This document shows, one piece after another, positions 3,373-59,662 of a stretch of 64,000 nt of DNA. Below the pieces are notes generated by a model. It searched no databases and was not told where the DNA came from. It worked only from the letters and a program-made list of their open reading frames with translations. Each line of letters begins with the position of its first letter. Position 1 is the stretch's first letter. A program made the position numbers and the translations under genes. Source of the stretch: Candidatus Omnitrophota bacterium (GTDB taxonomy: Bacteria > Omnitrophota > Gorgyraeia > Zapsychrales > JBAZNR01); the NCBI GenBank assembly GCA_041649175.1, contig JBAZNR010000001.1, positions 1,039,497 through 1,103,496 on the forward strand, read 5' to 3'.

Positions 3373-4635
3373 ATGGCAGATATCATTAAGCGCAAGGTGC
3401 AAGAACATCTTATTTCTAAGACTGATTTTTTGTCCGTTAAAGATAAGCTCAATGAGGATCAGCTGCGCGTTTTTGTTTTAAACGCCATTAATGAAGTATG
3501 CAAAAAAGAGGAAATGATCCTTACCGAAGACGAGCGTGTTTTACTGATCCGGGAATTGGTAAGCGCTGTTATCAGTTTTGGCCCTTTGCGTCCTTTGATG
3601 GAAGATAATTCTATTTCAGAGATCATGGTGAACGGCCCGCGCAAAATCTATATTCAGCGAAAAGGGCACATCGGGTTGGCGGATGCTCGCTTTGACGATG
3701 ACCGCCATCTTTTGCATACAATTCAAAAGATCTTGGCGATATCCGGTTCCGGGCGCCGCGTGGATGAGTCATCTCCGTATGTGGATTTTTCCTTAAGCGA
3801 TGGTTCTCGGGTCAATATTATTTTGCCGCCGGTTTCTTTATCGGGCCCGGTCATAACGATCCGAAAGTTTTCATCAGAGATCTCAAAGATAGAAGATCTT
3901 TTAGACCGTCAAATGCTCAATAAACAGATGGCCGAATTCTTGGTTGCGTCCATTAAGGCAAAGCTCAACATCGTTTTTTGCGGGGCAACGGGAACAGGTA
4001 AAACGACGACATTAAATGTTCTATCGCGGTATATTTCCGAAGACGAACGTGTGATCACTATTGAAGATACTGCTGAGCTTCAGCTTTTGCAGGAACATGT
4101 GGTAAAATTACAGTCTAAGCCGACTAATATTGAAGGCAAGGGGGCGATCAGCATTCGGGATCTTTTTATCAATTCGCTTCGTATGCGCCCGGACAGAATT
4201 ATTATTGGAGAAGTCCGCGGGTCAGAAGCGCTAGACCTTATTCAGGCGATCACCAGCGGGCACACGGGGTCACTCGCCATTGTTCACGCGGATTCTCCCC
4301 AGGACTGTTTTAATCGCATGGTAACGATGATCTTGATCTCCGGAATTCAGCTTAGCGTTGATGAGATCCGTAAACAAATCGCTTCGGCAGTTGATCTCTT
4401 TGTGCACACCGAATTATTTTTAGACGGAAAAAGAAGGATCACTCATATCACCGATACGCGTTATTTAGCCGGAGAAAATAAAGTTGTCCTGGAAGATGTT
4501 TTTCATTTTCGTCAGCAATCCATTGAATCCGACAATCGCATTATTGGTGATTGGGTGATGAACAAAAAGAAACCCTCTTTTTACGAGAAATTTGTTAAAA
4601 GAAATGTTAAACTTCCCGATGGGTTTTTCGAATAG
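3373..4635 (+). CDS. CpaF/TadA-family type II/IV secretion system ATPase (orphan)
   Basis: Walker A motif GATGTGKTTTLN, an IEDTAEL box and RMRPDRIIIGEVRG, which are hallmarks of CpaF/VirB11-type ATPases. A GGGGA RBS precedes the ATG. No pilus or tad partners are nearby. Confidence 0.85.
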   Translation: MADIIKRKVQEHLISKTDFLSVKDKLNEDQLRVFVLNAINEVCKKEEMILTEDERVLLIRELVSAVISFGPLRPLMEDNSISEIMVNGPRKIYIQRKGHIGLADARFDDDRHLLHTIQKILAISGSGRRVDESSPYVDFSLSDGSRVNIILPPVSLSGPVITIRKFSSEISKIEDLLDRQMLNKQMAEFLVASIKAKLNIVFCGATGTGKTTTLNVLSRYISEDERVITIEDTAELQLLQEHVVKLQSKPTNIEGKGAISIRDLFINSLRMRPDRIIIGEVRGSEALDLIQAITSGHTGSLAIVHADSPQDCFNRMVTMILISGIQLSVDEIRKQIASAVDLFVHTELFLDGKRRITHITDTRYLAGENKVVLEDVFHFRQQSIESDNRIIGDWVMNKKKPSFYEKFVKRNVKLPDGFFE

Positions 4636-4652: not shown

Positions 4653-5915
4653 ATGTTGTGGTCTAATTTCTTTATTCCGACGTTAAAAGAAGTTCCTTTA
4701 GGAACCGAAGCGGTCAGTCACCAGCTGTTGCTGCGCTCCGGCTTGGTGAATATGCTCACCTCCGGTGTTTATTCGTATCTACCGCTGGGCTTAAAAGTGC
4801 TTCGCCGCATTGAGAACATTATTCGCGAAGAAATGAATGCGGCCGGCGCGCAAGAATTATTCTTGCCATGTCTACAACCCATCGAACTTTGGCAAAAAAC
4901 AGGCCGCGACAAAACACTGGCTGATGTTATGATCCGCTTTGAAGATAAACGCGGACGGGCAATGTGCCTTGGCCCGACGCATGAAGAGATCATTACGGAA
5001 TTAGTTAAAAGTTTTGTGCAGTCGTATCGCCAGCTTCCGGTCGTGCTTTATCAGATCCAAACTAAGTTTCGTGACGAAATGCGTCCGCGTTTTGGGATCG
5101 TGCGCGCCTGTGAATTTATCATGAAAGACGCGTATAGTTTTGACCGCGATAAAAAGGGATTAGAAAAGAATTATAAGCTGATGTTTGAAGCGTATCAGAA
5201 TATCTTTAAGCGTTGCGGCTTGGATGTGGTTACGATCGAGGCCGATTCGGGGGCGATGGGCGGTGATGTTTCGCATGAATTTATGGTTTTGGCCCCCATT
5301 GGAGAAGACGCTGTTTTGCTTTGTGAGGCGTGCGGTTTTACGGGCAGCGTTTCGGCAAGTCAAAATGAAGGGTTTGATTGTCCGAAATGCAAAATGGCAA
5401 AACTAGCCAAAAAAGTCGCTATTGAAATCGGCCACATTTTTCAGTTGGGAACAAAATATAGCCATGCGCAAGGGGCGCAATTCTTAGACGAAAGCGGAAA
5501 ACAACAAGATATTATTATGGGTTGTTACGGCATTGGGGTCAGCCGTCTTATTGCGACCATTGTTGAGAAAAATAATGATAGTGCTGGTATTGTTTGGCCT
5601 AAAGGCGTTGCGCCGTTCGATGTGGAAATATTACCGGTCCAAGTCAGCGACAGCGGAATTATGGAATTAGCCGACGCGTATTATGAGAGTTTTAAACGGG
5701 ACGGATTAGATGTTTTATTAGATGACCGCGACGATAGCGCCGGGAGAAAGTTTAATGACGCGGATTTGATCGGCATTCCCCTGCGCGTGGTGATCGGAAA
5801 ACGGATGCGCTTGGAGGGAAAAGTCGAGATCAAAAACCGGCGTACGGGTGAAGTGGTCGTGGTGGATAAAGATCAAGCGTTGGAAAAAGTAAAAGAACTT
5901 ATTACTCAGGCTTAA
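4653..5915 (+). CDS. proS: Prolyl-tRNA synthetase, short bacterial type lacking the INS editing domain
   Basis: Class II aaRS motifs (FRDEMRPRFGIVRACEFIMKDAYSF) and an anticodon-binding C-terminus. The protein is only 420 aa. A CxxC...CxxC knuckle (approx nt 5322-5402) sits where the INS domain normally lies. Confidence 0.88.
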   Translation: MLWSNFFIPTLKEVPLGTEAVSHQLLLRSGLVNMLTSGVYSYLPLGLKVLRRIENIIREEMNAAGAQELFLPCLQPIELWQKTGRDKTLADVMIRFEDKRGRAMCLGPTHEEIITELVKSFVQSYRQLPVVLYQIQTKFRDEMRPRFGIVRACEFIMKDAYSFDRDKKGLEKNYKLMFEAYQNIFKRCGLDVVTIEADSGAMGGDVSHEFMVLAPIGEDAVLLCEACGFTGSVSASQNEGFDCPKCKMAKLAKKVAIEIGHIFQLGTKYSHAQGAQFLDESGKQQDIIMGCYGIGVSRLIATIVEKNNDSAGIVWPKGVAPFDVEILPVQVSDSGIMELADAYYESFKRDGLDVLLDDRDDSAGRKFNDADLIGIPLRVVIGKRMRLEGKVEIKNRRTGEVVVVDKDQALEKVKELITQA

Positions 5916-5918
5916 GAG

Positions 5919-6386
5919 ATGATCGACGCATCGCTGGTTGAACGTGTTAAGGAAATTGCCGTGCCATTTTTAGAGCGGCTTAACGTTGAATTAGTGGATT
6001 TAACGGTTCGCAGCGAAAGCGGCCGCGTAGTTTTAGAGATCTTGGCCGATAAAACAAGCGGCGGTATTACGCTTGATGAATGTGCGCGGCTTAACCGGGA
6101 TATTGGCGAAGCTCTTGAAAACGCGAATTTTATAACGAGCGGTTATGCGGTTGAAGTTTCATCACCAGGCCTGGATCGTCCGCTTAAGACAGCTAAAGAT
6201 TTTTTGCGGGTTTCAAACAAGAAAATACATGTATTTCTTTCAGAGTCGGTTGCAGGTAAAATTGAGTATATCGGCCTTGTTAAGGGAGTTCAAAACGATT
6301 CGCTCATACTTGATGTTGGGCCTTGTGAGCTGAGTATTATGCTGAGCACGATCAATAGGGCTAAACAAATCATTAACGATTTTTAA
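5919..6386 (+). CDS. rimP: Ribosome maturation factor RimP
   Basis: 155 aa, positioned immediately upstream of nusA-infB. A conserved VSSPGLDRPL motif is present. Confidence 0.88.
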   Translation: MIDASLVERVKEIAVPFLERLNVELVDLTVRSESGRVVLEILADKTSGGITLDECARLNRDIGEALENANFITSGYAVEVSSPGLDRPLKTAKDFLRVSNKKIHVFLSESVAGKIEYIGLVKGVQNDSLILDVGPCELSIMLSTINRAKQIINDF

Positions 6387-6404
6387 CAGAAGGGTTTGGG
6401 TATT

Positions 6405-7604
6405 ATGGATAGTGAGTTGCTGGTCATTTTGGAACAGTTAGAGCGCGATAAAGGGATCGATAAAGAAATCCTTATTCAGGCGGTAGAAATGGCTGTTGCT
6501 TCGGCAGCAAAAAAAGTCTGTAGCGTCGATAAGGTAGAGGATATTAAAGTTGTCCTGGACCGCAAAACAGGAAAATTATCCGCGTTTGCCGGCGGCCAAG
6601 AGATCAAATCGAAAGATTTTGGCCGTATTGCCGCGCAAACAGCCAAGCAGGTCGTTATTCAAAAGATCCGCGAAGCCGAAAAAGATGTTGTCTTTAACGA
6701 ATATCAGGCTCGCGTGGGGCAAATTGTCAGCGGCGGGGTTTATCGGTTTGAAAAAGGAAGCATTATTGTCGACCTAGGTAAAGCCGAAGGATTCATTCCC
6801 AAAAGCGAACAATCTATTAAAGAAGAATTTCGCCAGGGAGATCGCATCCGCGCCTATGTTTTGGATGTTAAAAAAGACCTTAAGGGTCCGCAGATCGTTT
6901 TGTCTCGGGCTCATCCGAATTTTGTCCGTAGGCTTTTTGAGCTTGAAGTTCCTGAAATTTATGAAGGCATTATTGAAGTGAAGTCTATTTCTCGCGACGC
7001 GGGCGAACGCACCAAGATCGCTGTTTATTCAAAAGATGAGAAAGTAGATTGCGTGGGAGCATGCGTAGGGATGCGCGGTGCCCGTGTTAAAAGTATTGTT
7101 TCCGAACTTCACGGAGAAAAGATCGATATTGTCCGGTATTCCGATGATATGAAAGAATATATTCAAGCGGCGCTTTCTCCGGCGGAGCTAAGCCAAATCA
7201 TTTTAAACAAAGAGAATAAAAGAGCTCAAATTCTTGTTGCGGACGATCAGCTGTCTTTATCAATTGGAAAACATGGACAGAATGTGCGCTTGGCGTCCCG
7301 GCTTATCGGGTGGGAGCTGGATATTCGCTCAGCAGTTCAGGTCCAGGAAGAATCTGCTCGTGAAGTCGCGGAGGAAGCCATGGACCCCAAAGAAAGCGCG
7401 AAAGACGAGGGGCATTCGCTTTCGGAGTTGTCCGGTGTGGGAGAGAAACTTGTAGAGCTTTTAGAAAAGTCTGGATTTGACAGCTTGGAAAAGATTGCCG
7501 AGGCAACGATTGACGGCTTAACTGAGATTAAAGGCGTCGGCAAAGTGAAAGCTGAAAAGATCATTGAGCAGGCAAAAAAAATTATTAAAGGCAAGAAAGC
7601 CTAA
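6405..7604 (+). CDS. nusA: Transcription termination/antitermination factor NusA
   Basis: S1 and KH domains are recognisable (GxxG-type KH motifs), with C-terminal HhH repeats. The six-frame ORF begins at TTG 6396. I placed the start at ATG 6405 (MDSELL). Confidence 0.9.
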   Translation: MDSELLVILEQLERDKGIDKEILIQAVEMAVASAAKKVCSVDKVEDIKVVLDRKTGKLSAFAGGQEIKSKDFGRIAAQTAKQVVIQKIREAEKDVVFNEYQARVGQIVSGGVYRFEKGSIIVDLGKAEGFIPKSEQSIKEEFRQGDRIRAYVLDVKKDLKGPQIVLSRAHPNFVRRLFELEVPEIYEGIIEVKSISRDAGERTKIAVYSKDEKVDCVGACVGMRGARVKSIVSELHGEKIDIVRYSDDMKEYIQAALSPAELSQIILNKENKRAQILVADDQLSLSIGKHGQNVRLASRLIGWELDIRSAVQVQEESAREVAEEAMDPKESAKDEGHSLSELSGVGEKLVELLEKSGFDSLEKIAEATIDGLTEIKGVGKVKAEKIIEQAKKIIKGKKA

Positions 7605-34675: not shown

Positions 34676-35239
34676 ATGATCCTTGTTATTGATAATTACG
34701 ATTCGTTTACATATAACCTTGTTCAATATTTGGGTGAATTGGGCGCTGATCTAAAAGTCTATCGCAACGATAAAATTTCTGTTGAACAAATAAAGAAACT
34801 TAAACCCGACCGCATTGTTATTTCTCCCGGGCCAGGCCGCCCCGAGGATGCCGGAATTTCTGTGGCTGTCATCAAAGAATTATCCGGAAAAATCCCTATC
34901 TTGGGTGTTTGCTTGGGGCATCAGGCTATCGGTTTCGCCTATGGCGGAAAAATCATTCAAGCCAAGAAATTGATGCACGGAAAAACCTCGCAGATCTATC
35001 ATGATAAAAAAAGAATTTTCTCAAAAATAGATAATCCTTTTGAAGCAACGCGTTATCATTCCTTAGTGATCGAGAAAAAAAGTTTGCCGTCGTGCCTGAC
35101 TGTGACCGCTTGGACAAAGGACGAAGAAATTATGGGAGTTGTTCATAAAGATTTTCCGCTGTGGGGCGTTCAATTCCATCCTGAATCAATCTTAACCAAG
35201 TCAGGATTGGGTTTACTCAAAAATTTTCTTACCCTTTGA
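34676..35239 (+). CDS. trpG: Anthranilate synthase component II / aminodeoxychorismate synthase glutamine amidotransferase
   Basis: Class I GATase of 187 aa with a GVCLGHQ catalytic Cys and a terminal HPE motif. Confidence 0.9.
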
Positions 35240-36252
35240 TGAATAACTACATTGATAAGCTTCAGAAAAAACAGAACCTTACATCCTTAGAGATGGAAGA
35301 GGTGATGCGCTCTATCATGTCGGGAAAGGCTTCTCAAAATGATATCGCATTATTTCTAATGGCGCTGCGTGATAAAGGCGCGACGGTTGATGAGATCACC
35401 GGAGCCGCCAAGATCATGCGGCAGTTTGTGGTCCCTGTCCAAAGTAAGCACGCTGTCATTTTGGATACTTGTGGCACCGGTGGAGACCGCCTGCGAACAT
35501 TCAATATATCGACGATCGTTGCTTTCGTTGTGGCGGCCGCGGGGGTAGCGGTGGCGAAACACGGCAATCGCTCGGTTTCCAGCAAATGCGGAAGCGCCGA
35601 TCTTCTTGAAGCCTTAGGTGTTAATCTTGACGCGGAATCAAAAAACTTAAGCACTTGTTTAGATAAGATCGGTATTGTATTTTTATTCGCTCAGAAGCTT
35701 CATCCCGCTATGAAACACGCCGCACCGGCACGAAAACAATTAGGCGTTGAAACGATCTTCAATGTCTTAGGCCCTTTGACAAATCCGGCTCAAGCGACGC
35801 ATCAGATGATGGGCGTTTATCAAAATGACCTGACGGAGCCGATGGCGCAAGTTCTCAAGAATTTGGGATTGAAGAAGGCATTGGTGGTCCACGGCGCTGA
35901 TGGATTAGATGAAGTCACCACAACACGTGAAACATTTGTCAGTGAATTTAACGGAAAAGATATTAGTTCGTATACGATCGACCCCAAAGAATGCGGAATA
36001 GCGCTTGCCTCCCTGGAAAACTTAAGAGGCGGCGATGCGTCGACCAATTCTCGGATCGCTTTAGAGATTTTGAAAGGAAAAAAAAGCGCTAAACGCGATA
36101 TTGTTGTTTTTAACGCGGCTTGCGCGCTTTATATCGCGGAAAAAGTCAAGGCGATCCCCGATGGAATAAAAATAGCCGAGGATATGATCGATACAGGGAA
36201 GGCTTTAGACAAGTTGGAGGCTTTAAAGGAATTTACGCATTATGCCCAATGA
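35236..36252 (+). CDS. trpD: Anthranilate phosphoribosyltransferase
   Basis: DTCGTGGD and [15 protein letters not shown] motifs. Length is 338 aa. Confidence 0.92.
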
Positions 36253-37030
36253 CTTTTTAAAACAGATCATTGAATATAAACAAAGCCTTCTAAAAGAAAA
36301 GAAGGCATTCTATGAGACTCTTAAAAATAAGATCAGGAAGGAAAAGCTATCCCGTTATTGTATTTTTAAGAAAGCTATTTCTGCGCCCGGGCAAGTTAAT
36401 TTGATCGCCGAAATAAAGAAAGCCTCGCCTTCCAAGGGAATTATCCGCCCTAATTTTGATTGCTTGCAACTGGCAAAAGTTTATGTCAAAAATGGCGCGG
36501 CGGCCTTATCGATCTTAACGGAAGATAAATTTTTCTTAGGTAAAATTCCGTATTTGCGCCAAGTAAGCGAGAATTTAAGCGTTCCGGTCTTAACGAAAGA
36601 TTTCATCATTGATGAAGTGCAAATCTATGAAGCGTTTTATTTCGGAACAAGCGCTATTCTTTTGATCGTTGCCATCCTGGACGACAAACAACTAAGAAAC
36701 TTGATGAATGTGGCGGCCGATCTGGATTTAGATTGTTTAGTCGAAATTCACAATGAAAAAGAACTAAACCGTGCTTTAAAAGCTAAAGCGGAAATTATCG
36801 GGGTCAACAACCGAAACTTGCGCACCTTTGAAGTGGATTTAAAGGTCAGCGAGAAACTTATTCCCCAAATCCCCAAAGACAAGGTTATTGTGGCGGAAAG
36901 CGGGATCAAGGCTCATCAAGAAATAAAGGTTTTAGAAAAACTTGGGGCTCATGCGGTTTTGATCGGAGAAACATTCTTACGCGAAGCGGATGTAGCAGCT
37001 AAAGTGAAGGAAGTGATGCATGGCGAATAA
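36242..37030 (+). CDS. trpC: Indole-3-glycerol phosphate synthase
   Basis: IAEIKKASPSKG and an NNRNL motif. Length is 262 aa. Confidence 0.92.
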   Translation: MPNDFLKQIIEYKQSLLKEKKAFYETLKNKIRKEKLSRYCIFKKAISAPGQVNLIAEIKKASPSKGIIRPNFDCLQLAKVYVKNGAAALSILTEDKFFLGKIPYLRQVSENLSVPVLTKDFIIDEVQIYEAFYFGTSAILLIVAILDDKQLRNLMNVAADLDLDCLVEIHNEKELNRALKAKAEIIGVNNRNLRTFEVDLKVSEKLIPQIPKDKVIVAESGIKAHQEIKVLEKLGAHAVLIGETFLREADVAAKVKEVMHGE

Positions 37031-37646
37031 AGTTAAAGTTAAGATTTGCGGCATAACTAATGAGTCGGATGCTCTTTTTGCGTGTGAACTTGGCGCTTGG
37101 GCGCTGGGGTTTGTTTTTCACAAGAAAAGTCCGCGCTATATTTCTCCGTCGAAGGCAAAAAGAATTATTGAGGCGCTTCCTCCGTTCGTCACGCCAGTCG
37201 GCGTTTTTGCCAACTTAAGAGAAGGCGCGGTAAGAGATATCGCGCGGTTTTGTTCGTTACGAACTTTGCAATTCCACGGGAATGAAACGCCGCAGTATTG
37301 CGGGCGCTTTAGGGATCATTCCGTCATAAAAGCGTTTCGTGTCGGGAATGATTTCGATATTAGTAGCTTAAGCCAATTTAAGACATCAGGTTATTTGTTC
37401 GACACTTTCCAAGAAGATGTTCAAGGCGGAACGGGAAAGACATTTAATTGGGACATTATCAAGGATAAAAAATTTACGCGGCCGGTTATTTTGTCGGGTG
37501 GCTTAAACCCCCAGAATGTTGCGCAAGCCATTGGAGAGATCAAGCCTTACGCGGTTGACGTTAGTAGCGGCGTTGAGCAAACGCCGGGTAAGAAAAGCGG
37601 AAAATTGTTGATAGAATTCTTTCAAATTGTTAATTCTCTTAATTAA
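37020..37646 (+). CDS. trpF: Phosphoribosylanthranilate isomerase
   Basis: VKICGIT N-terminus and the QFHG motif. Length is 208 aa. Confidence 0.9.
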   Translation: MANKVKVKICGITNESDALFACELGAWALGFVFHKKSPRYISPSKAKRIIEALPPFVTPVGVFANLREGAVRDIARFCSLRTLQFHGNETPQYCGRFRDHSVIKAFRVGNDFDISSLSQFKTSGYLFDTFQEDVQGGTGKTFNWDIIKDKKFTRPVILSGGLNPQNVAQAIGEIKPYAVDVSSGVEQTPGKKSGKLLIEFFQIVNSLN

Positions 37647-37658
37647 GGAAAAGAAGCT

Positions 37659-38330
37659 ATGAGCAAAGTGATCTTTGATGTGGAAACGGTGGGGCAGGAT
37701 TTTGAAACCTTGGATGATACGTCAAAAGAGTATTTCTTAAAATTCGCCGAAACCGACGAAAAAAAAGAAGAAGCCAAGAATTCCTTAAGCTTTTATCCTT
37801 TGACCGCGCAAATTGTTACCATTGCCATGCTGGACGCCGAAACCCAAAAAGGATTTGTCTATTTTCAGAACAAGACAGGTAAGCCGGAGAAGTTTGTTGA
37901 GGGCGAAACACTTTATTTGGCGGGTACCGAACAGGATATTCTTAATAACTTCTGGGTCCAAATAAGAAAATATACGCATTTTATAACGTTCAACGGAAGG
38001 GTTTTTGATTGTCCGTTCGTGATGTTGCGTTCGGCCATAAACGGTATTCGTGCCGGTAAAAATCTTATGCCGTATCGTTATAGCCACACAGAGCATATTG
38101 ACTTGAGCGATCAGCTGACATTTTATGATGCGATGCGGCGTAAATTCAGCCTACATATGTGGTGCCAGGCTTTTGGCGTTAAAAGCCCAAAAGAAGAGGG
38201 AATTACCGGGCTTCAGGTCAAAGACCTCTTTAAAGAAGGGCGTTATCACGATATCGCGCGCTATTGTTTTCGTGATGTTCAGGCAACAAAAGAGCTTTAT
38301 CAGTATTGGGAAAAAAACCTTAGGTTTTAG
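37659..38330 (+). CDS. Predicted DEDDy 3'-5' exonuclease, RNase H-like fold (PolB-exonuclease-domain-like)
   Basis: IFDVETVG (Exo I), FNGRVFDCPFV (Exo II-like) and YCFRDVQATKELY (YxxxD Exo III). 223 aa. It is embedded between trpF and trpB. Confidence 0.65.
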   Translation: MSKVIFDVETVGQDFETLDDTSKEYFLKFAETDEKKEEAKNSLSFYPLTAQIVTIAMLDAETQKGFVYFQNKTGKPEKFVEGETLYLAGTEQDILNNFWVQIRKYTHFITFNGRVFDCPFVMLRSAINGIRAGKNLMPYRYSHTEHIDLSDQLTFYDAMRRKFSLHMWCQAFGVKSPKEEGITGLQVKDLFKEGRYHDIARYCFRDVQATKELYQYWEKNLRF

Positions 38331-38385
38331 TTTTATTTTTCAGCCTCGTCGATAGAAAGCCCTTTCTTGAGCGCGGGTAGCCACC

Positions 38386-38414
38386 TTGTCGAGTTTAGAA
38401 AAGTATGCTATATT
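38386..38414 (+). promoter_or_regulatory. Promoter of the candidate small RNA
   Basis: TTGTCG at 38386-38391, a 17-nt spacer, then TATATT at 38409-38414. The predicted +1 (~38421) coincides with the first base of the RNA closing helix. Confidence 0.55.
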
Positions 38415-38420
38415 CTTATT

Positions 38421-38616
38421 AAGCCGATAAAGGTAAACCCGTTGAAAGACGGGGACGCAAAGCCTACAGACCTAATGTGTCGGATGCTCAAAGAGGCTCG
38501 CGGTGGTGCTGGCGGGCGACAAAAGCCGGGTACGGCTTATGGCTGACGACAAGATGGTGGCTGGGTTGCCGAAGTGACGCGGGAGCGATATCCCGATCTT
38601 TGTCGGCTTCTTTTTT
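38421..38616 (+). ncRNA. Candidate structured small RNA of ~195 nt, identity unassigned (possibly 6S-like or another trans-acting sRNA)
   Basis: GC-rich island (~58% GC) in an AT-rich intergenic region. A 14-bp closing helix joins 38421-38434 with 38596-38609 and ends in UUUUUU. Internal hairpins are recognisable: 38438-38453 with a GAAA tetraloop, 38523-38538 with a GGUA loop, and 38580-38595. The RNA has its own promoter and is followed by a second terminator hairpin. Confidence 0.55.
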
Positions 38617-38627
38617 AAACACCTTTT

Positions 38628-38656
38628 AAAACCCTCTTCAATGAGGGTTTTTTATT
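38628..38656 (+). terminator. Rho-independent terminator downstream of the candidate sRNA
   Basis: 9-bp stem AAAACCCTC / GAGGGTTTT with a TTCAAT loop, followed by a T-run. Confidence 0.75.
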
Positions 38657-38731
38657 TTTATGCCATCCTTAAGCTAATCTTTCTTCTGCATTCTTTTTGT
38701 TGTGAAAAATCATTTTCTAGGCAATAGGTTA

Positions 38732-38740
38732 TGGTATAAT
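38732..38740 (+). promoter_or_regulatory. Extended -10 promoter (TGGTATAAT) for the Zn-ribbon/M20 operon
   Basis: TGnTATAAT at 38732-38740. The first in-frame ATG lies at 38749, only ~8 nt downstream. This suggests a leaderless or near-leaderless mRNA. Confidence 0.5.
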
Positions 38741-38748
38741 TGTGCCCA

Positions 38749-39051
38749 ATGAATATCAAATTTTTAAGGGTTTTTAAACGCGTTGATGTCGACGATGTCA
38801 AGGGGCATCTATTGATCTGCGGAGACCTTTCGGCCAGCTGTTCGAAATGCGCGGCTGTAGGGATAAAACTTGATAGCAGCAAGTGCCCTGAATGCCAAAC
38901 AGATTTTCGTTATGTTACTTTCCGAAATATAAAAGAAAATATGCCTAAAGTTCAAAGGTTAAGCGAACCTCCATTGGCTTTGTCGGTCATTGATTTTGAT
39001 GATTATAAGAAAATTACCGGAGCGCAAAAAGCTGAGGATTTCTTTAGATGA
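38749..39051 (+). CDS. Small Cys4 zinc-ribbon protein of unknown function
   Basis: ~100 aa with CSKC...CPEC. Its stop overlaps the start of the M20 peptidase gene (ATGA). The six-frame ORF begins at TTG 38740, inside the -10 element, so ATG 38749 is preferred. Confidence 0.55.
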   Translation: MNIKFLRVFKRVDVDDVKGHLLICGDLSASCSKCAAVGIKLDSSKCPECQTDFRYVTFRNIKENMPKVQRLSEPPLALSVIDFDDYKKITGAQKAEDFFR

Positions 39052-40190
39052 TCAATAAAAAAAGATTAACGGCATTAACTCAAAAGCTGATCGGGATCAA
39101 TTCTGAAAATCCTCCGGGACGAGAATGGGACATAGCCGAATTTATCCGTAAAGATATGCTGTCTTTAGGGCTGGATGTTAAGACATATACATTCCAAAAG
39201 AAGCGGCCGAATATTGTGGCGACTTTGCGGGGCAAATTGCCCCGCAAAGTCGCCAGCTCTCAAGCTATCTTGCTTTCGCCGCATATTGATACGGTTCCGG
39301 CGGGCAAGGGTTGGCGATTTGGTCCGTTTTCCGGGAAAATCCACCAAGGGAAAATTTATGGGCGTGGGGCTAGCGATGATAAGGGTAATTTAGCTTGTTG
39401 CATGGAAGTTTTAAGAAGCTTGATGGAAGACGGTGTTTCTTTCCAGAAAGATATTATCATGGCCGCAACGGCGGATGAGGAAACGGGGAGCCATTTTGGC
39501 ATTGTGCCGCTTTTGGCTAAAAAGATCCTGAAGCCAAAAGCGGCACTCATCATGGATTCCGACGAATTTCATTCTATTATCGCGCAAAAAGGGCTTATCC
39601 ACTGCCGGGTTCAGATTTTTGGGAAAAAAGCTCATGGCGCTTATAACTGGCGCGGTATTAATGCCATTGAACAAGCCGGCCGCATAATCAATCAAATAAA
39701 ACAACATAAGTTTTCTTTTAAAAAACATACGCTTTTGCACGCGCCGACGGTCAATGTTGGGACGATCAAAGGCGGAGACAAAGTCAATATGGTCGCGGAT
39801 TTCTGCGAATTTTCTTTAGATTTTCGTTATTTACCCGGCACAGATCCAAAATCTGTTTTAAATATTCTTAAGAAAACCATTCGATCCGAGGCAAAGAAAT
39901 TCAAGATCATCATCGACGATCTTCAATATCCTTATGAGATTGATACTGATCATTCCCTGGTTAAAACTTTTTCTGCTACCTGTAAGAAAATGGGATTTAA
40001 ATCGCAACTAACTGGCAGTGAAGGCGCAACAGTCATTTCGTTCTTTAAGCGTTTTGGTATTCCGGCTATTGCAACAGGTTTTGCGGCGGAAGGCACAGCG
40101 CATATCACGGATGAATATGCGGTGGTGAACGATCTGTATCATGGCTCGCAAGTCTTAGAACAGTTTTTAAAGGACTATGACCAAATATGA
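39048..40190 (+). CDS. M20-family metallopeptidase (ArgE/DapE-like deacylase)
   Basis: HIDTVPAG and GASDDKGNLA metal-binding motifs. Length is 380 aa. Confidence 0.8.
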   Translation: MINKKRLTALTQKLIGINSENPPGREWDIAEFIRKDMLSLGLDVKTYTFQKKRPNIVATLRGKLPRKVASSQAILLSPHIDTVPAGKGWRFGPFSGKIHQGKIYGRGASDDKGNLACCMEVLRSLMEDGVSFQKDIIMAATADEETGSHFGIVPLLAKKILKPKAALIMDSDEFHSIIAQKGLIHCRVQIFGKKAHGAYNWRGINAIEQAGRIINQIKQHKFSFKKHTLLHAPTVNVGTIKGGDKVNMVADFCEFSLDFRYLPGTDPKSVLNILKKTIRSEAKKFKIIIDDLQYPYEIDTDHSLVKTFSATCKKMGFKSQLTGSEGATVISFFKRFGIPAIATGFAAEGTAHITDEYAVVNDLYHGSQVLEQFLKDYDQI

Positions 40191-40660
40191 GTCCGGCGAA
40201 ACATGTGATTGCTTCGGGTGTTACCAGTGTTGTTTTTATGGTTTTGTTTAAATCCTGGGCGGGTGCCGTGGCGTGTTTTTTAAGCGGTATTTTGATCGAC
40301 GTGGATCATCTTTGGGATTTTTATTTAGGAACTAAGAAAATCAGCTTTAGTGTTCAGGAGCTGGATGATTTTTGTTCCCGCGATGAAAAAGGAGGAAAGC
40401 TTTATCTTTTTTTTCACTCCTATGAGTTTTTAGCGGTATTATGGGGCATTGTATTTTATTCTCAATTTTCTCCCGTTTTAACCGGTATTGTTCTTGGAAT
40501 GAGCGTTCATTTGTTGCTTGATCAAATAACTAACGCAGTTTATCCTTGGGCATATTTCTTTTTTTATCGCGCAAGGTTTGGCTTTCCGCAGGAAGTTTTC
40601 TTTAAGGAACGGTTTTTGAAAAGATTTGTTTGCGCAAACGAGACCTCATATGAGAAATAG
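40187..40660 (+). CDS. DUF457/YdjM-like membrane-bound metal-dependent hydrolase-family protein
   Basis: 157 aa with 3-4 TM segments and conserved His/Asp positions (IDVDHLWD, HLLLDQ). The ATGA overlap with the M20 gene indicates coupling. Confidence 0.55.
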   Translation: MSPAKHVIASGVTSVVFMVLFKSWAGAVACFLSGILIDVDHLWDFYLGTKKISFSVQELDDFCSRDEKGGKLYLFFHSYEFLAVLWGIVFYSQFSPVLTGIVLGMSVHLLLDQITNAVYPWAYFFFYRARFGFPQEVFFKERFLKRFVCANETSYEK

Positions 40661-41411
40661 TAAAATATTTTTAACGGCTCTATTCTTTCTGCTTGGATCG
40701 ATGACTTCTTGTTCATCTGAATCCGATCATTTCTCGCAAAATCAAAAAAACAAAGAAGCATTCAACCAAGGCCAACAAACATTTTCTCCTTTTCTTCCTG
40801 GTGAAACGATCAAGTATTCCATAAAAAATCTTGGCATTAATGCCGGAGAAGCGACGATTACTTTTGAGGGGATCAAGAAAATTAACGGCAAAGATTTTCT
40901 CCTGATTGTTTTTAAGGCCAATGCCATTAATTTCTTTGACGAGGAAAAGATATATTCCGATCCGGAAACTTTTTATCCTTTGATTGTTGAGCGTGATTTG
41001 AATATTTTCGGGAAGAAAGAAAAGATCACTGAGGTCTATGATCAGAAAAATGGTGTTATCAGAATTATCAAGAAAGCGGGCGGAAAAACGACGGAACAAA
41101 CGATCAGCAAACAAGGTGCTATTGATAACATCTATTGTTTTATTTATCGTTACCGGCAATCAGGAAAATTTCAAGTTGGCGAATCATTTTCTGTCAAGCT
41201 TCCCACAAAGGATGTTATTATAAACCTAGTGAAGGAAACGAAGATTAAAGCAGCCGGGAAAGAGTACAGTAGCTATTATCTCCAAACAAATCCGGCGCAA
41301 TATAAGGTGTGGATCGATACAAGTGAGAAAAAAGTTCCTTTGCGTATCAATGGGGCAGTTGGGGTCAGTTCAACAGCGATGATCATGAACGCATATCAAG
41401 ACGGAAAATAA
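40650..41411 (+). CDS. DUF3108-like lipoprotein
   Basis: Lipobox LLGSMTSC after a signal peptide. The mature region is beta-rich with the [19 protein letters not shown] pattern typical of DUF3108. The six-frame ORF begins at 40626. I used ATG 40650. Confidence 0.55.
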
Positions 41412-41412
41412 A

Positions 41413-42591
41413 ATGAGTTTACCAGATAAGCAAGGACATTTCGGAGAGTTTGGCGGGAAATTTGTTCCTGAGACGCTGATGTCGGCTTTAGCGGACCTAG
41501 AAAAAGTTTTTTACGCTCTAAAAAAGAACAAAAAATTCAAAGAAGAGTTTAATTTCTATCTTCGTGAGTATGCCGGACGGCCGACTAATCTTTACTTGGC
41601 CAAGCGGCTTAGTCGTCATTTAAAACATCTCAAGGTTTATCTCAAGCGCGAAGATCTTCTTCATACTGGCGCGCATAAGATCAATAATACTTTAGGTCAA
41701 ATTCTGATCGCCAGAAATATGGGGAAAACCCGTATTATTGCTGAGACGGGTGCTGGTCAGCATGGTGTGGCGACCGCGACCGCTGCGGCTTTGTTCGGCT
41801 TGAAATGTGAAATCTATATGGGCGAGGAAGACATCGAACGTCAGGCGCTTAATGTTTTTAGAATGAAACTTTTGGGCGCGAAAGTTATTCCGGTCACTAG
41901 CGGCTCTAAGACGCTTAAAGACGCGATGAATGAAGCTATTCGCGATTGGGTGACGAATGTGGCCAATACTTTTTATATTATCGGTTCCGTTGCCGGCCCT
42001 CATCCGTATCCGGTGATGGTGCGTGATTTTCAATCCGTGATCGGACGGGAAGCCCGAAAGCAAATTCTAGCCAAAGAACATCGTTTGCCGGATTGTATCG
42101 TCGCTTGTGTTGGCGGCGGTAGCAATGCTATGGGGCTTTTTCATTCTTTCTTTAACGATAAAAGCGTAAAGATGATCGGCGTAGAAGCGGCTGGATTAGG
42201 GATGAATACGCGCATGCATGCGATCTCTCTGGGGAAAGGGAAAACGGGGGTTTTGCATGGAAGTAAAAGCAGTCTTTTGCAAGAAAACGATGGCCAGGTC
42301 AAAATCGCCCACTCCATTGCGGCCGGATTAGATTATCCCGGAGTCGGGCCGGAACACGCGTATTACAAGAAAATTGGCCGGGCAAATTATGTTTCCGTGA
42401 CAGACCAAGAAGCTATTAAGGGTTTAAAACTTCTTTCACAAACGGAAGGGATCATTCCTGCCCTGGAATCGGCACATGCAATCAGCTATTTAGAAAAATT
42501 AGCAAGGAAAGTTAAGGGAAGCGCCACCGTTATTGTTTGTTTGTCAGGGCGCGGTGATAAAGATGTCAGTTCGATCAAAGATTTGATCTAG
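41413..42591 (+). CDS. trpB: Tryptophan synthase beta chain
   Basis: [12 protein letters not shown]-lysine motif and a GGGSNA motif. Length is 392 aa. Confidence 0.94.
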
Positions 42592-42604
42592 TGAAAGAAC
42601 AAAT

Positions 42605-43396
42605 ATGAATCGCATTGATAAAAAATTTAAAGAGCTTAAGATTGGACGAAAGAAAGCTTTCGTTGCATTTATCACGGCTGGCGATCCGGATCTGAAAACG
42701 ACCGAAAAATTAGTTTTGGAATTTGAGAAATCCGGCGTTGACTTGATCGAATTAGGCGTGCCTTTCTCTGATCCATTAGCCGACGGCCCGACTATTCAAG
42801 CCGCTTCTTTTAGAGCGCTTAAAAAGAAAGTTACTTTAAAGAAGATCTTTGAATTGGTGCGTTGTATCCGTCGGAAATCCCAAATCCCTATTTGTTTGAT
42901 GGGTTACTATAATCCCGTGTTTCATTTTGGCGAAGAGAAGTTTATTAAAGAAGCAAGTCGTTTTGGCGTTGATGGTGTGATCATTCCTGACCTGCCTCCG
43001 GAAGAAGCCGGCCGGTTAATTTCTGCGGCGCAAAAATACAATGTGGCAACTATTTTCTTTTTGTCGCCGACAACCACAAAAAAACGGGCTGAAAAAGTTA
43101 TTCGCGCTTCCAGCGGTTTTATTTACTATGTTTCCTTGGCAGGGGTGACGGGCACGCGCAAGGCTTTGCCGAAAACAATTATCAAGAATGTTCGCGCGGC
43201 AAAGCAGTTAACTAACAAGCCGATCTGTGTTGGCTTTGGTGTTTCCAATCCTTCTCAAGTGAAGTTGATCGGCACCATTGCCGATGGTGTTATTGTCGGA
43301 AGCGCGATCGTTAAAGAGATTGAGCGAAATGCAGGAAAAAAAGATTTAGTGAAAAATGTTTCGCGTTTTGTGAAGAAGTTAGCCGTATCTCTGTAA
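42605..43396 (+). CDS. trpA: Tryptophan synthase alpha chain
   Basis: ELGVPFSDPLADGPTIQ motif. Length is 263 aa. Confidence 0.93.
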   Translation: MNRIDKKFKELKIGRKKAFVAFITAGDPDLKTTEKLVLEFEKSGVDLIELGVPFSDPLADGPTIQAASFRALKKKVTLKKIFELVRCIRRKSQIPICLMGYYNPVFHFGEEKFIKEASRFGVDGVIIPDLPPEEAGRLISAAQKYNVATIFFLSPTTTKKRAEKVIRASSGFIYYVSLAGVTGTRKALPKTIIKNVRAAKQLTNKPICVGFGVSNPSQVKLIGTIADGVIVGSAIVKEIERNAGKKDLVKNVSRFVKKLAVSL

Positions 43397-58239: not shown

Positions 58240-58312
58240 TAGCGGAATATAATAATTCTCTAGAGAGCGGGAGCTGATTGTCTAAAAGCAAAGAAATTCG
58301 TAAATAAAATTT

Positions 58313-59662
58313 ATGAAAATACCTAAGAATATCGATAGCCTTATTTTTAATGACATTAACGTCGGTGTTTACCGCAATACGCCCGGCACGCATGGAAAAT
58401 TTATCCGCGTTAATGATGCGCTAGTTCGCATGTTCGGCTACAGCAATCAAAAGGAATTCTTAAAAAAGGTTCGCCCGTCCGATGTTTATTTTTATTCCGG
58501 CGATCGCAAGAAATTTAGCGAACTACTTGCCAAAAAAGGTTTTGTCCGAAGAAAAGAGCTTGTCTTAAAACGTCGAGACGGAACATTGGCGTATGTGCAA
58601 ATTACGGCAACAGCGGTGAAAGACAAAAGAGGGAAAGTCCGTTGGTTTGATGGGATCATTGAGGATGTAACGAAGTTTCGCCGGGAACAGGAGCGGTTTC
58701 GCCATATTTTTGAAAATTCACCCGTTGCCATCTGGGAAGAAGATTTATCGGCTGTTCTTCAGCTTATCAGGCGCTTGCAGAAACAGGGGACAAAAGACCT
58801 GCGAAAATATTTCTTGAGTCATCCTGCGATCGTTGCTCATGCTTTTCGGAATATTAAAATTTTAGATATCAATAAGGCTGCCTTGCAACTTTATGGAGCG
58901 AAGAATAAAAAAGAATTAGTTAAAAATTTTGGAAAAACATTTGCCGCCGGCGCTTTAGAGATATTAACGGATGAATTTCTTACCCTGGCCAAAGGTGAAA
59001 AGAATTTTTCCACAGAGTTAAAAAGTAGAACCATTGATGGCAAGATGCGCGATGTGCTTTTGCGCGTCTCAGTTCCTGATGGTTACGAAAGAAGCCTTTC
59101 CCGTGTTATTGTTACCTTGGAAGATATTACAGAACGTAAACAGCTTGAGCGGCATTTAAAAAAAGTTGCTCAGCAAGACGGTTTGACGAAATTATTCAAC
59201 AGTCGCGCCATATCCAAGCGGCTGGATGAAGAGCTTATTCGAGCCAAGCGCTATAATCTTAATCTTTCCTGCCTGATGCTGGATGTTGATTATTTTAAAG
59301 TGATCAATGATAAATTTGGACATCAAAAAGGCGATCAGATCTTAAAGCGTGTTGCGACCTTGATCAAAACGAGCTTGCGCCGCTCGGATATTGTCGGCCG
59401 TTATGGAGGCGATGAGTTTCTGGCGATCTTGACCCAAACGAAACCTGAAAATGCCAAGATCGCCGCCGAGCGTATCCGCCAATTGGTTACCGCGCAAAGG
59501 TTTCCTTCATATAAAAATATTCCAACCAAGATTACGGTCAGCATCGGTGTCAGCGGTTATCCTCATAAGGATGTTAAGGATTTTCGGAATTTGATCTCAA
59601 ATGCTGATAAAGCGCTTTATCTTGCAAAAGGTTCCGGCCGAGATTGCGTTATTTTGTCATAA
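58313..59662 (+). CDS. PAS-PAS-GGDEF diguanylate cyclase with an intact GGDEF active site and RxxD I-site
   Basis: C-terminal motif ...RRSDIVGRYGGDEFLAIL... The N-terminal ~270 aa are PAS-like repeats. Confidence 0.85.
   Translation: MKIPKNIDSLIFNDINVGVYRNTPGTHGKFIRVNDALVRMFGYSNQKEFLKKVRPSDVYFYSGDRKKFSELLAKKGFVRRKELVLKRRDGTLAYVQITATAVKDKRGKVRWFDGIIEDVTKFRREQERFRHIFENSPVAIWEEDLSAVLQLIRRLQKQGTKDLRKYFLSHPAIVAHAFRNIKILDINKAALQLYGAKNKKELVKNFGKTFAAGALEILTDEFLTLAKGEKNFSTELKSRTIDGKMRDVLLRVSVPDGYERSLSRVIVTLEDITERKQLERHLKKVAQQDGLTKLFNSRAISKRLDEELIRAKRYNLNLSCLMLDVDYFKVINDKFGHQKGDQILKRVATLIKTSLRRSDIVGRYGGDEFLAILTQTKPENAKIAAERIRQLVTAQRFPSYKNIPTKITVSIGVSGYPHKDVKDFRNLISNADKALYLAKGSGRDCVILS

Follow-up and report, generated by a model that had tools for sequence, protein, structure and literature searches.

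An intergenic region in the trp gene cluster of a Candidatus Omnitrophota bacterium encodes an RNA that carries a class I receptor for cyclic di-GMP (the c-di-GMP-I or GEMM-I aptamer). The RNA was found on the forward strand of contig JBAZNR010000001.1, within a stretch of 64,000 nucleotides (nt) that was analysed as a whole and is called the window below. Its membership of the GEMM-I family is secure from sequence, and c-di-GMP is the predicted ligand. We lean towards a reading in which the aptamer is organised as a self-contained transcription unit, giving a c-di-GMP-responsive small RNA (sRNA) with two isoforms that would end at successive terminators, T1 and T2. The aptamer thus belongs to a known class, but its arrangement is unusual and probably autonomous.

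The initial annotation had excluded several riboswitch classes by eye, but it overlooked GEMM and left the RNA unassigned. The Rfam scan that it proposed returned RF01051 at 38422-38573 (+) with 59.4 bits against a gathering score of 35 (E = 4.3e-9). The match spans the model from end to end (1-87), and it was the sole Rfam match in the 64-kb window to reach gathering score. A GC-rich island had been described here and was recovered, with 57% GC at 38425-38574 compared with 31-40% in the flanks. Within the aptamer, the GAAA loop of P2 occupies 38444-38447, and 38433/38458 and 38434/38457 form the outer pairs of that helix. The receptor-like strands of P3 are CCUAAU (38471-38476) and GAUGG (38553-38557), and the distal end of P3 (~38481-38548) is a 68-nt lineage-specific extension, treated as an insertion by the Rfam alignment, that contains a GGUA hairpin (38523-38538). 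A new family of trans-acting or 6S-like sRNAs with no relation to riboswitches, as had been suggested before, would accommodate the dedicated promoter, the closed 5′ and 3′ ends and the terminators, but it is refuted by a full-length match far over gathering score with all signature nucleotides in place, and we give it practically no weight.

For comparison, 23 non-redundant copies of the RNA were assembled, that of the window included, from loci sampled via the downstream Zn-ribbon protein (ZnR; loci L001-L032) and via the upstream exonuclease (exo; loci L150-L158). The aptamer alignment, nucleotide invariance and minimum free energy (MFE) tests used 15 sequences. Homologues scored 36-68 bits against RF01051, and 24 fetched loci reached gathering score, counting duplicate contigs. 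Residue numbers of the Vibrio cholerae Vc2 aptamer were set on the Rfam model from what we take to be the Vc2 construct sequence. By alignment to the model, Vc2 G20, C44, A47, G83 and C92 correspond to G38432, C38456, A38459, G38560 and C38569, and all five were invariant. These are the contact residues G20, A47 and C92 together with the C44-G83 inter-helix pair named for Vc2 (PMC4744006). In the 3′ tail, C92 and G94 were invariant and C93 nearly so. The 5′ strand of P1 is formed by C38425 and G38426 (Vc2 C13 and G14), and the numbering agrees with the assignment of G14 and G94 to P1a by nuclear magnetic resonance (PMC11705072). Canonical P1 is 2 bp only (C38425-G38571 and G38426-C38570), and both positions pair in 15/15 sequences.

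The covariation check on homologues that had been recommended revealed compensatory changes in both P2 and P3. The covariation score of these helices was 0.239 compared with 0.148 for shuffled alignments, a value that 0/500 shuffles equalled. Six pairs had changes on both sides, three of them inner P2 pairs, and the receptor-adjacent stem of P3 switched from U-A to C-G in six sequences. Two small open reading frames (ORFs; 38367-38546 and 38477-38629) overlap the RNA; here variation tracks the RNA helices, and insertion lengths differ widely among loci.

Related assignments were also considered. The GEMM-Ib variant that senses cyclic GMP-AMP, which Kellenberger and Nelson are said to have shown in 2015 to have A rather than G at position 20, is ruled out by a G at this position in 15/15 aligned sequences. 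The c-di-GMP-I-GGC variant (RF03167) scored 53.3 bits, under its gathering score of 59; the window RNA has A at position 47, where the model consensus after GACGC is G, and the outer P1 pair of that model becomes a G-G mismatch. The idea that the 68-nt P3 insertion forms an additional aptamer or domain was rejected: the insertion had no Rfam match of its own, covariation was confined to the receptor-adjacent stems and its interior had no alignable consensus. Over the T1-T2 region, the trpB motif (RF04312), a candidate from Firmicutes and Fusobacteria (PMC11109978), reached 24.4 bits (E = 0.38, gathering 59), and the rnk leader (22.2 bits), Phe leader and CRISPR repeat models were far under gathering, matching generic shapes of a hairpin and U-tract. 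As to the source of the ligand, a PAS-GGDEF diguanylate cyclase gene lies at 58304-59662 of the window (GGDEF domain, 162.8 bits), so that c-di-GMP is plausibly made by the host of this metagenome-assembled genome (MAG).

In some relatives, insertions in or beside P2 replace or accompany the P3 extension. These are 50-90 nt long and were seen in L016 (2765-2825), L024 (510-570), L152 (~3800-3880) and L158 (~3920-4010). The RNAs of L016 and L158, with large P2 insertions, fell under the Rfam filters, yet all their other motifs are present. Copies of this kind score at or below the Rfam gathering score, and standard annotation would therefore overlook them.

The aptamer is enclosed by a conserved set of transcription signals (Table 1). 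The promoter proposed in the initial annotation (TTGTCG-17-TATATT) was recovered by a sigma-70 scan and is of the extended -10 type, given the TG at 38406-38407. A TGnTAnnnT element 7-8 nt before GCCG, with a correctly spaced -35 TTG, was present in 22/22 testable loci. The 14-bp closing helix described there (38421-38434 with 38596-38609, followed by C-U6) appeared in both the MFE and the centroid fold, and the three hairpins placed inside it (38438-38453, 38523-38538 and 38580-38595) were all in the MFE structure. The fold of 38421-38616 had an MFE of -76.6 kcal/mol (z = -2.83), a stability reached by 2/200 shuffles. Across homologous loci the leader, (A)AGCCGAUAAAGG, is essentially invariant, as is the core of the distal strand, CUUU(A/G)UCGGCU. 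The two pair in an uninterrupted helix of 11-17 bp in 22/23 loci, L024 having one mismatch, and the helix was in the MFE structure of all 15 RNAs folded. A U-rich tract follows it in 20/23 loci, and the distal strand engages 11-14 nt of the leader right before this tract. At the position of the 38580-38595 hairpin, nearly all loci have a hairpin of other sequence. The second terminator of the initial annotation was likewise recovered, as a stem of -12.2 kcal/mol about 19-20 nt beyond T1; 17/23 loci have a separate strict terminator after T1, often with a similar CCCU...AGGG stem. T1 and T2 thus stand in series after the aptamer as a dual terminator, with T1 overlapping the sequence that competes with the aptamer. 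Consensus scans gave mild enrichment only. The evidence above chance is conservation, with promoter, leader, distal strand and U-tract kept in 20-22 of the 23 loci.

Table 1. Features of the GEMM-I RNA unit and the adjoining ZnR promoter (window coordinates)
Feature	Position	Strand	Evidence or remarks
RNA promoter	38386..38414	+	-35 TTGTCG 38386-38391, 17-nt spacer, extended -10 TGcTATATT 38406-38414; predicted +1 ~38421
5′ leader AAGCCGAUAAAGGU	38421..38434	+	P1 5′ strand, J1/2 and G38432 (= G20); 5′ strand of closing/terminator helix
c-di-GMP-I (GEMM-I) aptamer	38422..38573	+	RF01051 match; compensatory changes in P2 and P3
P2 hairpin with GAAA tetraloop	38438..38453	+	Rfam alignment, MFE fold
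P3 with tetraloop-receptor-like CCUAAU...GAUGG	38461..38567	+	Rfam alignment
3′ tail GCCGAAG	38568..38574	+	C38569 = C92 (ligand contact); C38570 and G38571 = P1 3′ strand
Variable G-rich hairpin CGGGA-GCGAUA-UCCCG	38580..38595	+	Stacks directly on closing helix
Terminator T1: distal strand AUCUUUGUCGGCUU (38596-38609) and C-U6 (38610-38616)	38596..38616	+	Complementary to leader
Terminator T2, canonical intrinsic	38628..38661	+	9-bp stem 38628-38651, U-rich tail
Separate ZnR promoter, extended -10 TGGTATAAT (38732-38740)	38732..38751	+	8 nt before ATG 38749; outside RNA unit

The leader-distal helix takes up the whole of 38421-38434, including the 5′ strand of P1, J1/2 and G20 (38425-38432), so that the closed helix (T1) and the ligand pocket should be mutually exclusive. 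In the mechanism that we propose, the distal strand would capture the leader when c-di-GMP is absent, and transcription would stop at T1 to give a closed RNA of ~195 nt. Binding of c-di-GMP during synthesis would keep the leader in the aptamer and weaken T1; polymerase would then read on for ~45 nt, as far as the constitutive T2, producing a ~240-nt RNA that leaves the invariant distal strand unpaired. The main output would be the isoform or conformation of the RNA itself, rather than the expression of a fixed downstream ORF, and candidate actions include pairing in trans, buffering of the messenger and antisense read-through, which the layout of one locus (L015) would permit. More tentative is the fuller version of this proposal, which we regard as possible and no better: a phylum-wide gene for an autonomous c-di-GMP-sensing sRNA, in which the ligand would turn the ~195-nt into the ~240-nt RNA and expose the 11-nt CUUUAUCGGCU for trans or antisense action. 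Matches to AGCCGATAAAG with at most one mismatch numbered 7 in the window compared with 1.7 expected. Two of these are the RNA's own strands; the remainder, considered as trans targets of the distal strand, lie in coding regions or on the wrong strand and were uninformative.

The autonomy of the unit was assessed from its genomic context. The initial annotation had placed the RNA in the trp gene cluster, and trpG/D/C/F lie upstream of it and trpB/A downstream. All genes are on the + strand, in the order prmC, murA, trpG, trpD, trpC, trpF and exo (PolB-like 3′-5′ exonuclease, 37659-38330) before the RNA, and ZnR (100 amino acids (aa), 38749-39051), M20 peptidase, YdjM-like, DUF3108, trpB, trpA and M16 peptidase after it. 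The block ZnR-M20-(YdjM)-DUF3108-trpB-trpA is kept with or without the RNA, which is absent from 8 non-redundant syntenic loci, each of them with an upstream flank of 500 nt or more. L016 and L017 have their gene-proximal sequence in common, and the RNA is present in L016 only. The separate downstream promoter that had been predicted was also found (Table 1), and its -10 element is so close to the start codon as to imply a leaderless-type mRNA. ZnR has its own TGnTATAAT 7-10 nt before the start codon in ~10/14 syntenic loci, RNA-less loci included, and it is the sole gene in the window arranged in this way.

Among the loci sampled through exo, the gene after the RNA differs. It is ZnR in L150, whereas in L153, L155 and L158 it encodes a small CxxCxxCC protein and has a start-proximal promoter of its own; in L152 a CxxCxxCC-type gene stands between the RNA and ZnR. 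In L154, L156 and L157, genes for giant proteins of 1559-2769 aa begin several hundred nt past the RNA, with a separate extended -10 element in L154 and L156. In L015 the RNA is on the opposite strand, ~2.5 kb from ZnR, with a divergent gene upstream; here it (~6755-6935, -) converges with a REC-GGDEF-MshEN gene (5316-6779, +), with an overlap between its terminator strand and the stop codon of that gene. With the promoter in 22/22 loci, T2 in 17/23 and a variable next gene, the comparison supports the view of the initial annotation that an operon leader is less likely, and from it we infer the autonomy of the transcript. That the RNA is transcribed independently, and not as the leader of the operon after it, is plausible, and the Omnitrophota arrangement looks like a self-contained sRNA gene, having its own promoter, two terminators and no fixed downstream gene.

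Several observations weigh against a self-contained, ligand-switched RNA, and those concerning its folding are taken up here. The leader-distal helix is backed by conservation and one variable pair, without rich covariation, which is nearly absent because both strands are invariant. In the terminal pair, a leader A is matched by U in 5/6 loci and a leader G by C in 4/5, a pattern no more than suggestive, since related genomes supply several of the G-C cases. When the Rfam helices were imposed and the nucleotides of the pocket left unpaired, holo-type folds lay 13-30 kcal/mol above the closed fold in energy, the contribution of the ligand being uncounted. Since the closed fold is far more stable, the switch must be kinetic, with the ligand captured before the distal strand is made, and on this model the closed RNA, once released, may not bind ligand at all. 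Ligand capture ahead of terminator strand synthesis is usual in transcriptional riboswitches. The holo-type folds had no conserved hairpin before the U-tract, with 0-11 distal nucleotides paired across loci. A local hairpin between tail and distal strand was accordingly rejected as a conserved form of T1, being in the MFE structure of 0/15 RNAs. The holo-type fold of the window nevertheless permits a local 8-bp hairpin (38572-38579/38601-38609) before the U-tract, and T1 might fire in both states in this RNA; given this alternative, c-di-GMP is expected to weaken T1, not necessarily to abolish it. Moreover, Vc2 needs an adequate length of P1a for stable binding (PMC11705072), compared with the 2 bp of canonical P1 here, suggesting that the lower leader-distal helix may double as an extension of P1. 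This is the core of another reading, in which the lower 5-6 bp (AAGCCG/CGGCUU) would always extend P1 and c-di-GMP would unzip the upper 8 bp; T1 would always fire, and the RNA would be a constitutively terminated, stand-alone aptamer serving as a tunable c-di-GMP buffer or sponge, for which the hypothesis put forward for the Bdellovibrio merRNA is a precedent (PMC3627812). L153 and L158 fit such a scheme, as they keep the distal complement despite loss of the U-tract, which implies that the helix has a role beyond termination. However, the tail nucleotides C93 and G94 are conserved, as expected if canonical P1 forms, and a closed fold much more stable than the open one would make a poor sponge. 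We consider this buffer or sponge reading, with T1 always firing, very unlikely.

The gene layout also holds points against the self-contained RNA. It is syntenic with ZnR, on the same strand and directly before it, in 15 non-redundant loci (the window, 13 sampled through ZnR, and L150) whose ZnR proteins are 44-62% identical. T2 is missing from L005, L008 and L027, for which the full upstream sequence was available, and this would permit read-through; in L005 and L008, ZnR has a leader of 40-59 nt with a Shine-Dalgarno-like sequence. Shine-Dalgarno use is weak genome-wide, so that its absence at ZnR says little, and a promoter right before the aptamer is normal for riboswitches. These observations are what a conventional cis-acting ON riboswitch would produce, with T1 relieved by c-di-GMP, a leaky T2, and read-through feeding ZnR-M20-YdjM-DUF3108-trpB-trpA. 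We nonetheless think such a riboswitch unlikely: most loci retain T2, the ZnR promoter sits close to the start codon in most loci even where the RNA is lacking, 8 loci have the ZnR operon without the RNA, unrelated or convergent genes follow the RNA in other lineages, and c-di-GMP has no obvious physiological tie to tryptophan synthase. On the upstream side, the stretch from the stop codon of exo to the RNA promoter contained no terminator, so that T1 and T2 also end the trpGDCF-exo operon, whose 3′ end is formed by the RNA as well. Of the 18 non-redundant loci that have exo, 17 have the RNA after it (9/9 in the window and ZnR-sampled loci, 8/9 in exo-sampled loci), and a c-di-GMP riboswitch working at a transcript 3′ end is known from the Vc2-terminated sRNAs of V. 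cholerae (bioRxiv 10.1101/617340). The RNA could then be a 3′-end module, the compact, ligand-bound aptamer affecting how the 3′ end forms or how stable the upstream RNA is. Yet its own promoter is kept in every testable locus, and L002, L005, L015 and L016 have the RNA but no exo before it, with a divergent upstream gene in L015 and L016; we regard such a 3′-end module as decidedly improbable.

The self-contained RNA was next set beside characterised c-di-GMP riboswitches. Like Vc2, it matches the full-length RF01051 model, with a GAAA-capped P2, a receptor-like CCUAA...AUGG in P3 and the contact nucleotides kept. Unlike Vc2, it has a 2-bp canonical P1, a variable 68-nt extension at the tip of P3 and, in some relatives, insertions in P2; in addition, the 5′ strand of the terminator is the aptamer's own leader, placing the whole aptamer inside the terminator loop, and there is no fixed downstream ORF. 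The Bc1 riboswitch of the Bacillus cereus group also has two rho-independent terminators downstream of the aptamer, separated by a few tens of nt (~20 nt between T1 and T2 here). In Bc1, T1 unfolds on c-di-GMP and T2 stays folded, masking any effect on the downstream genes, which do not respond (PMC11218506). By analogy, the apo and holo outputs that we propose match the behaviour measured for Bc1. However, T1 of Bc1 is a local hairpin whereas that of the Omnitrophota RNA is long-range, and Bc1 is a 5′ untranslated region with ribosome binding site and AUG in its expression platform, whereas the next gene here is variable and has a separate promoter.

The merRNA of Bdellovibrio bacteriovorus contains a GEMM-I aptamer in a discrete non-coding transcript without a conserved downstream ORF, and was proposed to act on c-di-GMP itself; it is 445 nt long, is massively expressed in attack phase and was not found beyond Bdellovibrio (PMC3627812). 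The genomic architecture of the Omnitrophota RNA, known here from sequence alone, likewise fits a stand-alone aptamer. It differs in its predicted length (~195-240 nt), in being kept in many Omnitrophota lineages and in a predicted ground state that occludes the pocket. In gene layout only, the exo-RNA arrangement resembles the 3′-placed Vc2, and the convergence of RNA and GGDEF gene in L015 resembles c-di-GMP riboswitches placed antisense or convergent to a gene (PMC9943018); unlike these, the Omnitrophota RNA has its own promoter.

No description of an Omnitrophota GEMM RNA was found in the searchable literature. The combination of a leader-built terminator round the whole aptamer, a conserved T2 and a variable or absent next gene, in many Omnitrophota lineages, looks new. 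Were the autonomous reading true, this would be the second reported lineage, after Bdellovibrio with its merRNA, to have a c-di-GMP aptamer as a gene of its own, and the first such case whose conservation is broad enough to allow comparative and biochemical study. Were the isoforms also real, the regulated product of the riboswitch would be the RNA itself, and use of the leader as the upstream strand of the terminator would be a compact coupling of ligand to termination, reusable in synthetic switches. A merely leaky ordinary riboswitch would amount to routine annotation. To our knowledge, the Omnitrophota are uncultivated and their c-di-GMP effectors essentially unknown, and a conserved RNA receptor offers a concrete handle on c-di-GMP signalling in this group.

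Some further observations were made on the loci and their neighbours. A clade-specific 17-mer, AGCCGATAAAGGYAAAC, occurred in 117 IMG/VR contigs, but the P2 hairpin and distal strand were present in 0/80 of the loci returned, which are unrelated to the RNA. Most of the 80 contain one conserved phage sequence ending just before the ribosome binding site, and the rest are scattered chance matches; a large family of freshwater phage contigs (L033-L112) shares AGCCGATAAAGGCAAACATTTTAAAAAAGGTGG just ahead of a gene whose small protein product is rich in Ala, Pro, Met and His, and this sequence matches the riboswitch leader over 17 nt by chance only. An exact-protein contig search with the M20 gene product gave no match. 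In L015, read-through from the RNA would run antisense to the REC-GGDEF-MshEN gene, which belongs to c-di-GMP signalling, and a feedback loop would be possible.

The split of trpGDCF from trpBA (34676-43396) by exo, the RNA, ZnR, M20, YdjM-like and DUF3108 is kept in this order in many Omnitrophota MAGs. A word-based protein search found 9 relatives of the 100-aa Zn-ribbon protein, which belongs to no Pfam family, and its start-proximal -10 element was also seen in L001, L003, L004, L016-L021, L024, L025, L027 and L150. The CxxCxxCC protein is ~90-100 aa long with the motif C..CG.CCG...DPCEHL, and its gene has its own start-proximal TGnTATAAT; it lies at ~4078-4350 in L153, ~3990-4280 in L155, ~4280-4560 in L158 and ~4200-4500 in L152, and in L155 the gene caller had placed an opposite-strand ORF at this site. 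Finally, the giant genes, which occur in Aceula-type genomes, have a short, conserved hairpin-like motif, TYCCGCCACGGAAA, in their long 5′ region (~4180-4200 in L154, ~4240-4260 in L156 and ~4400-4420 in L157).

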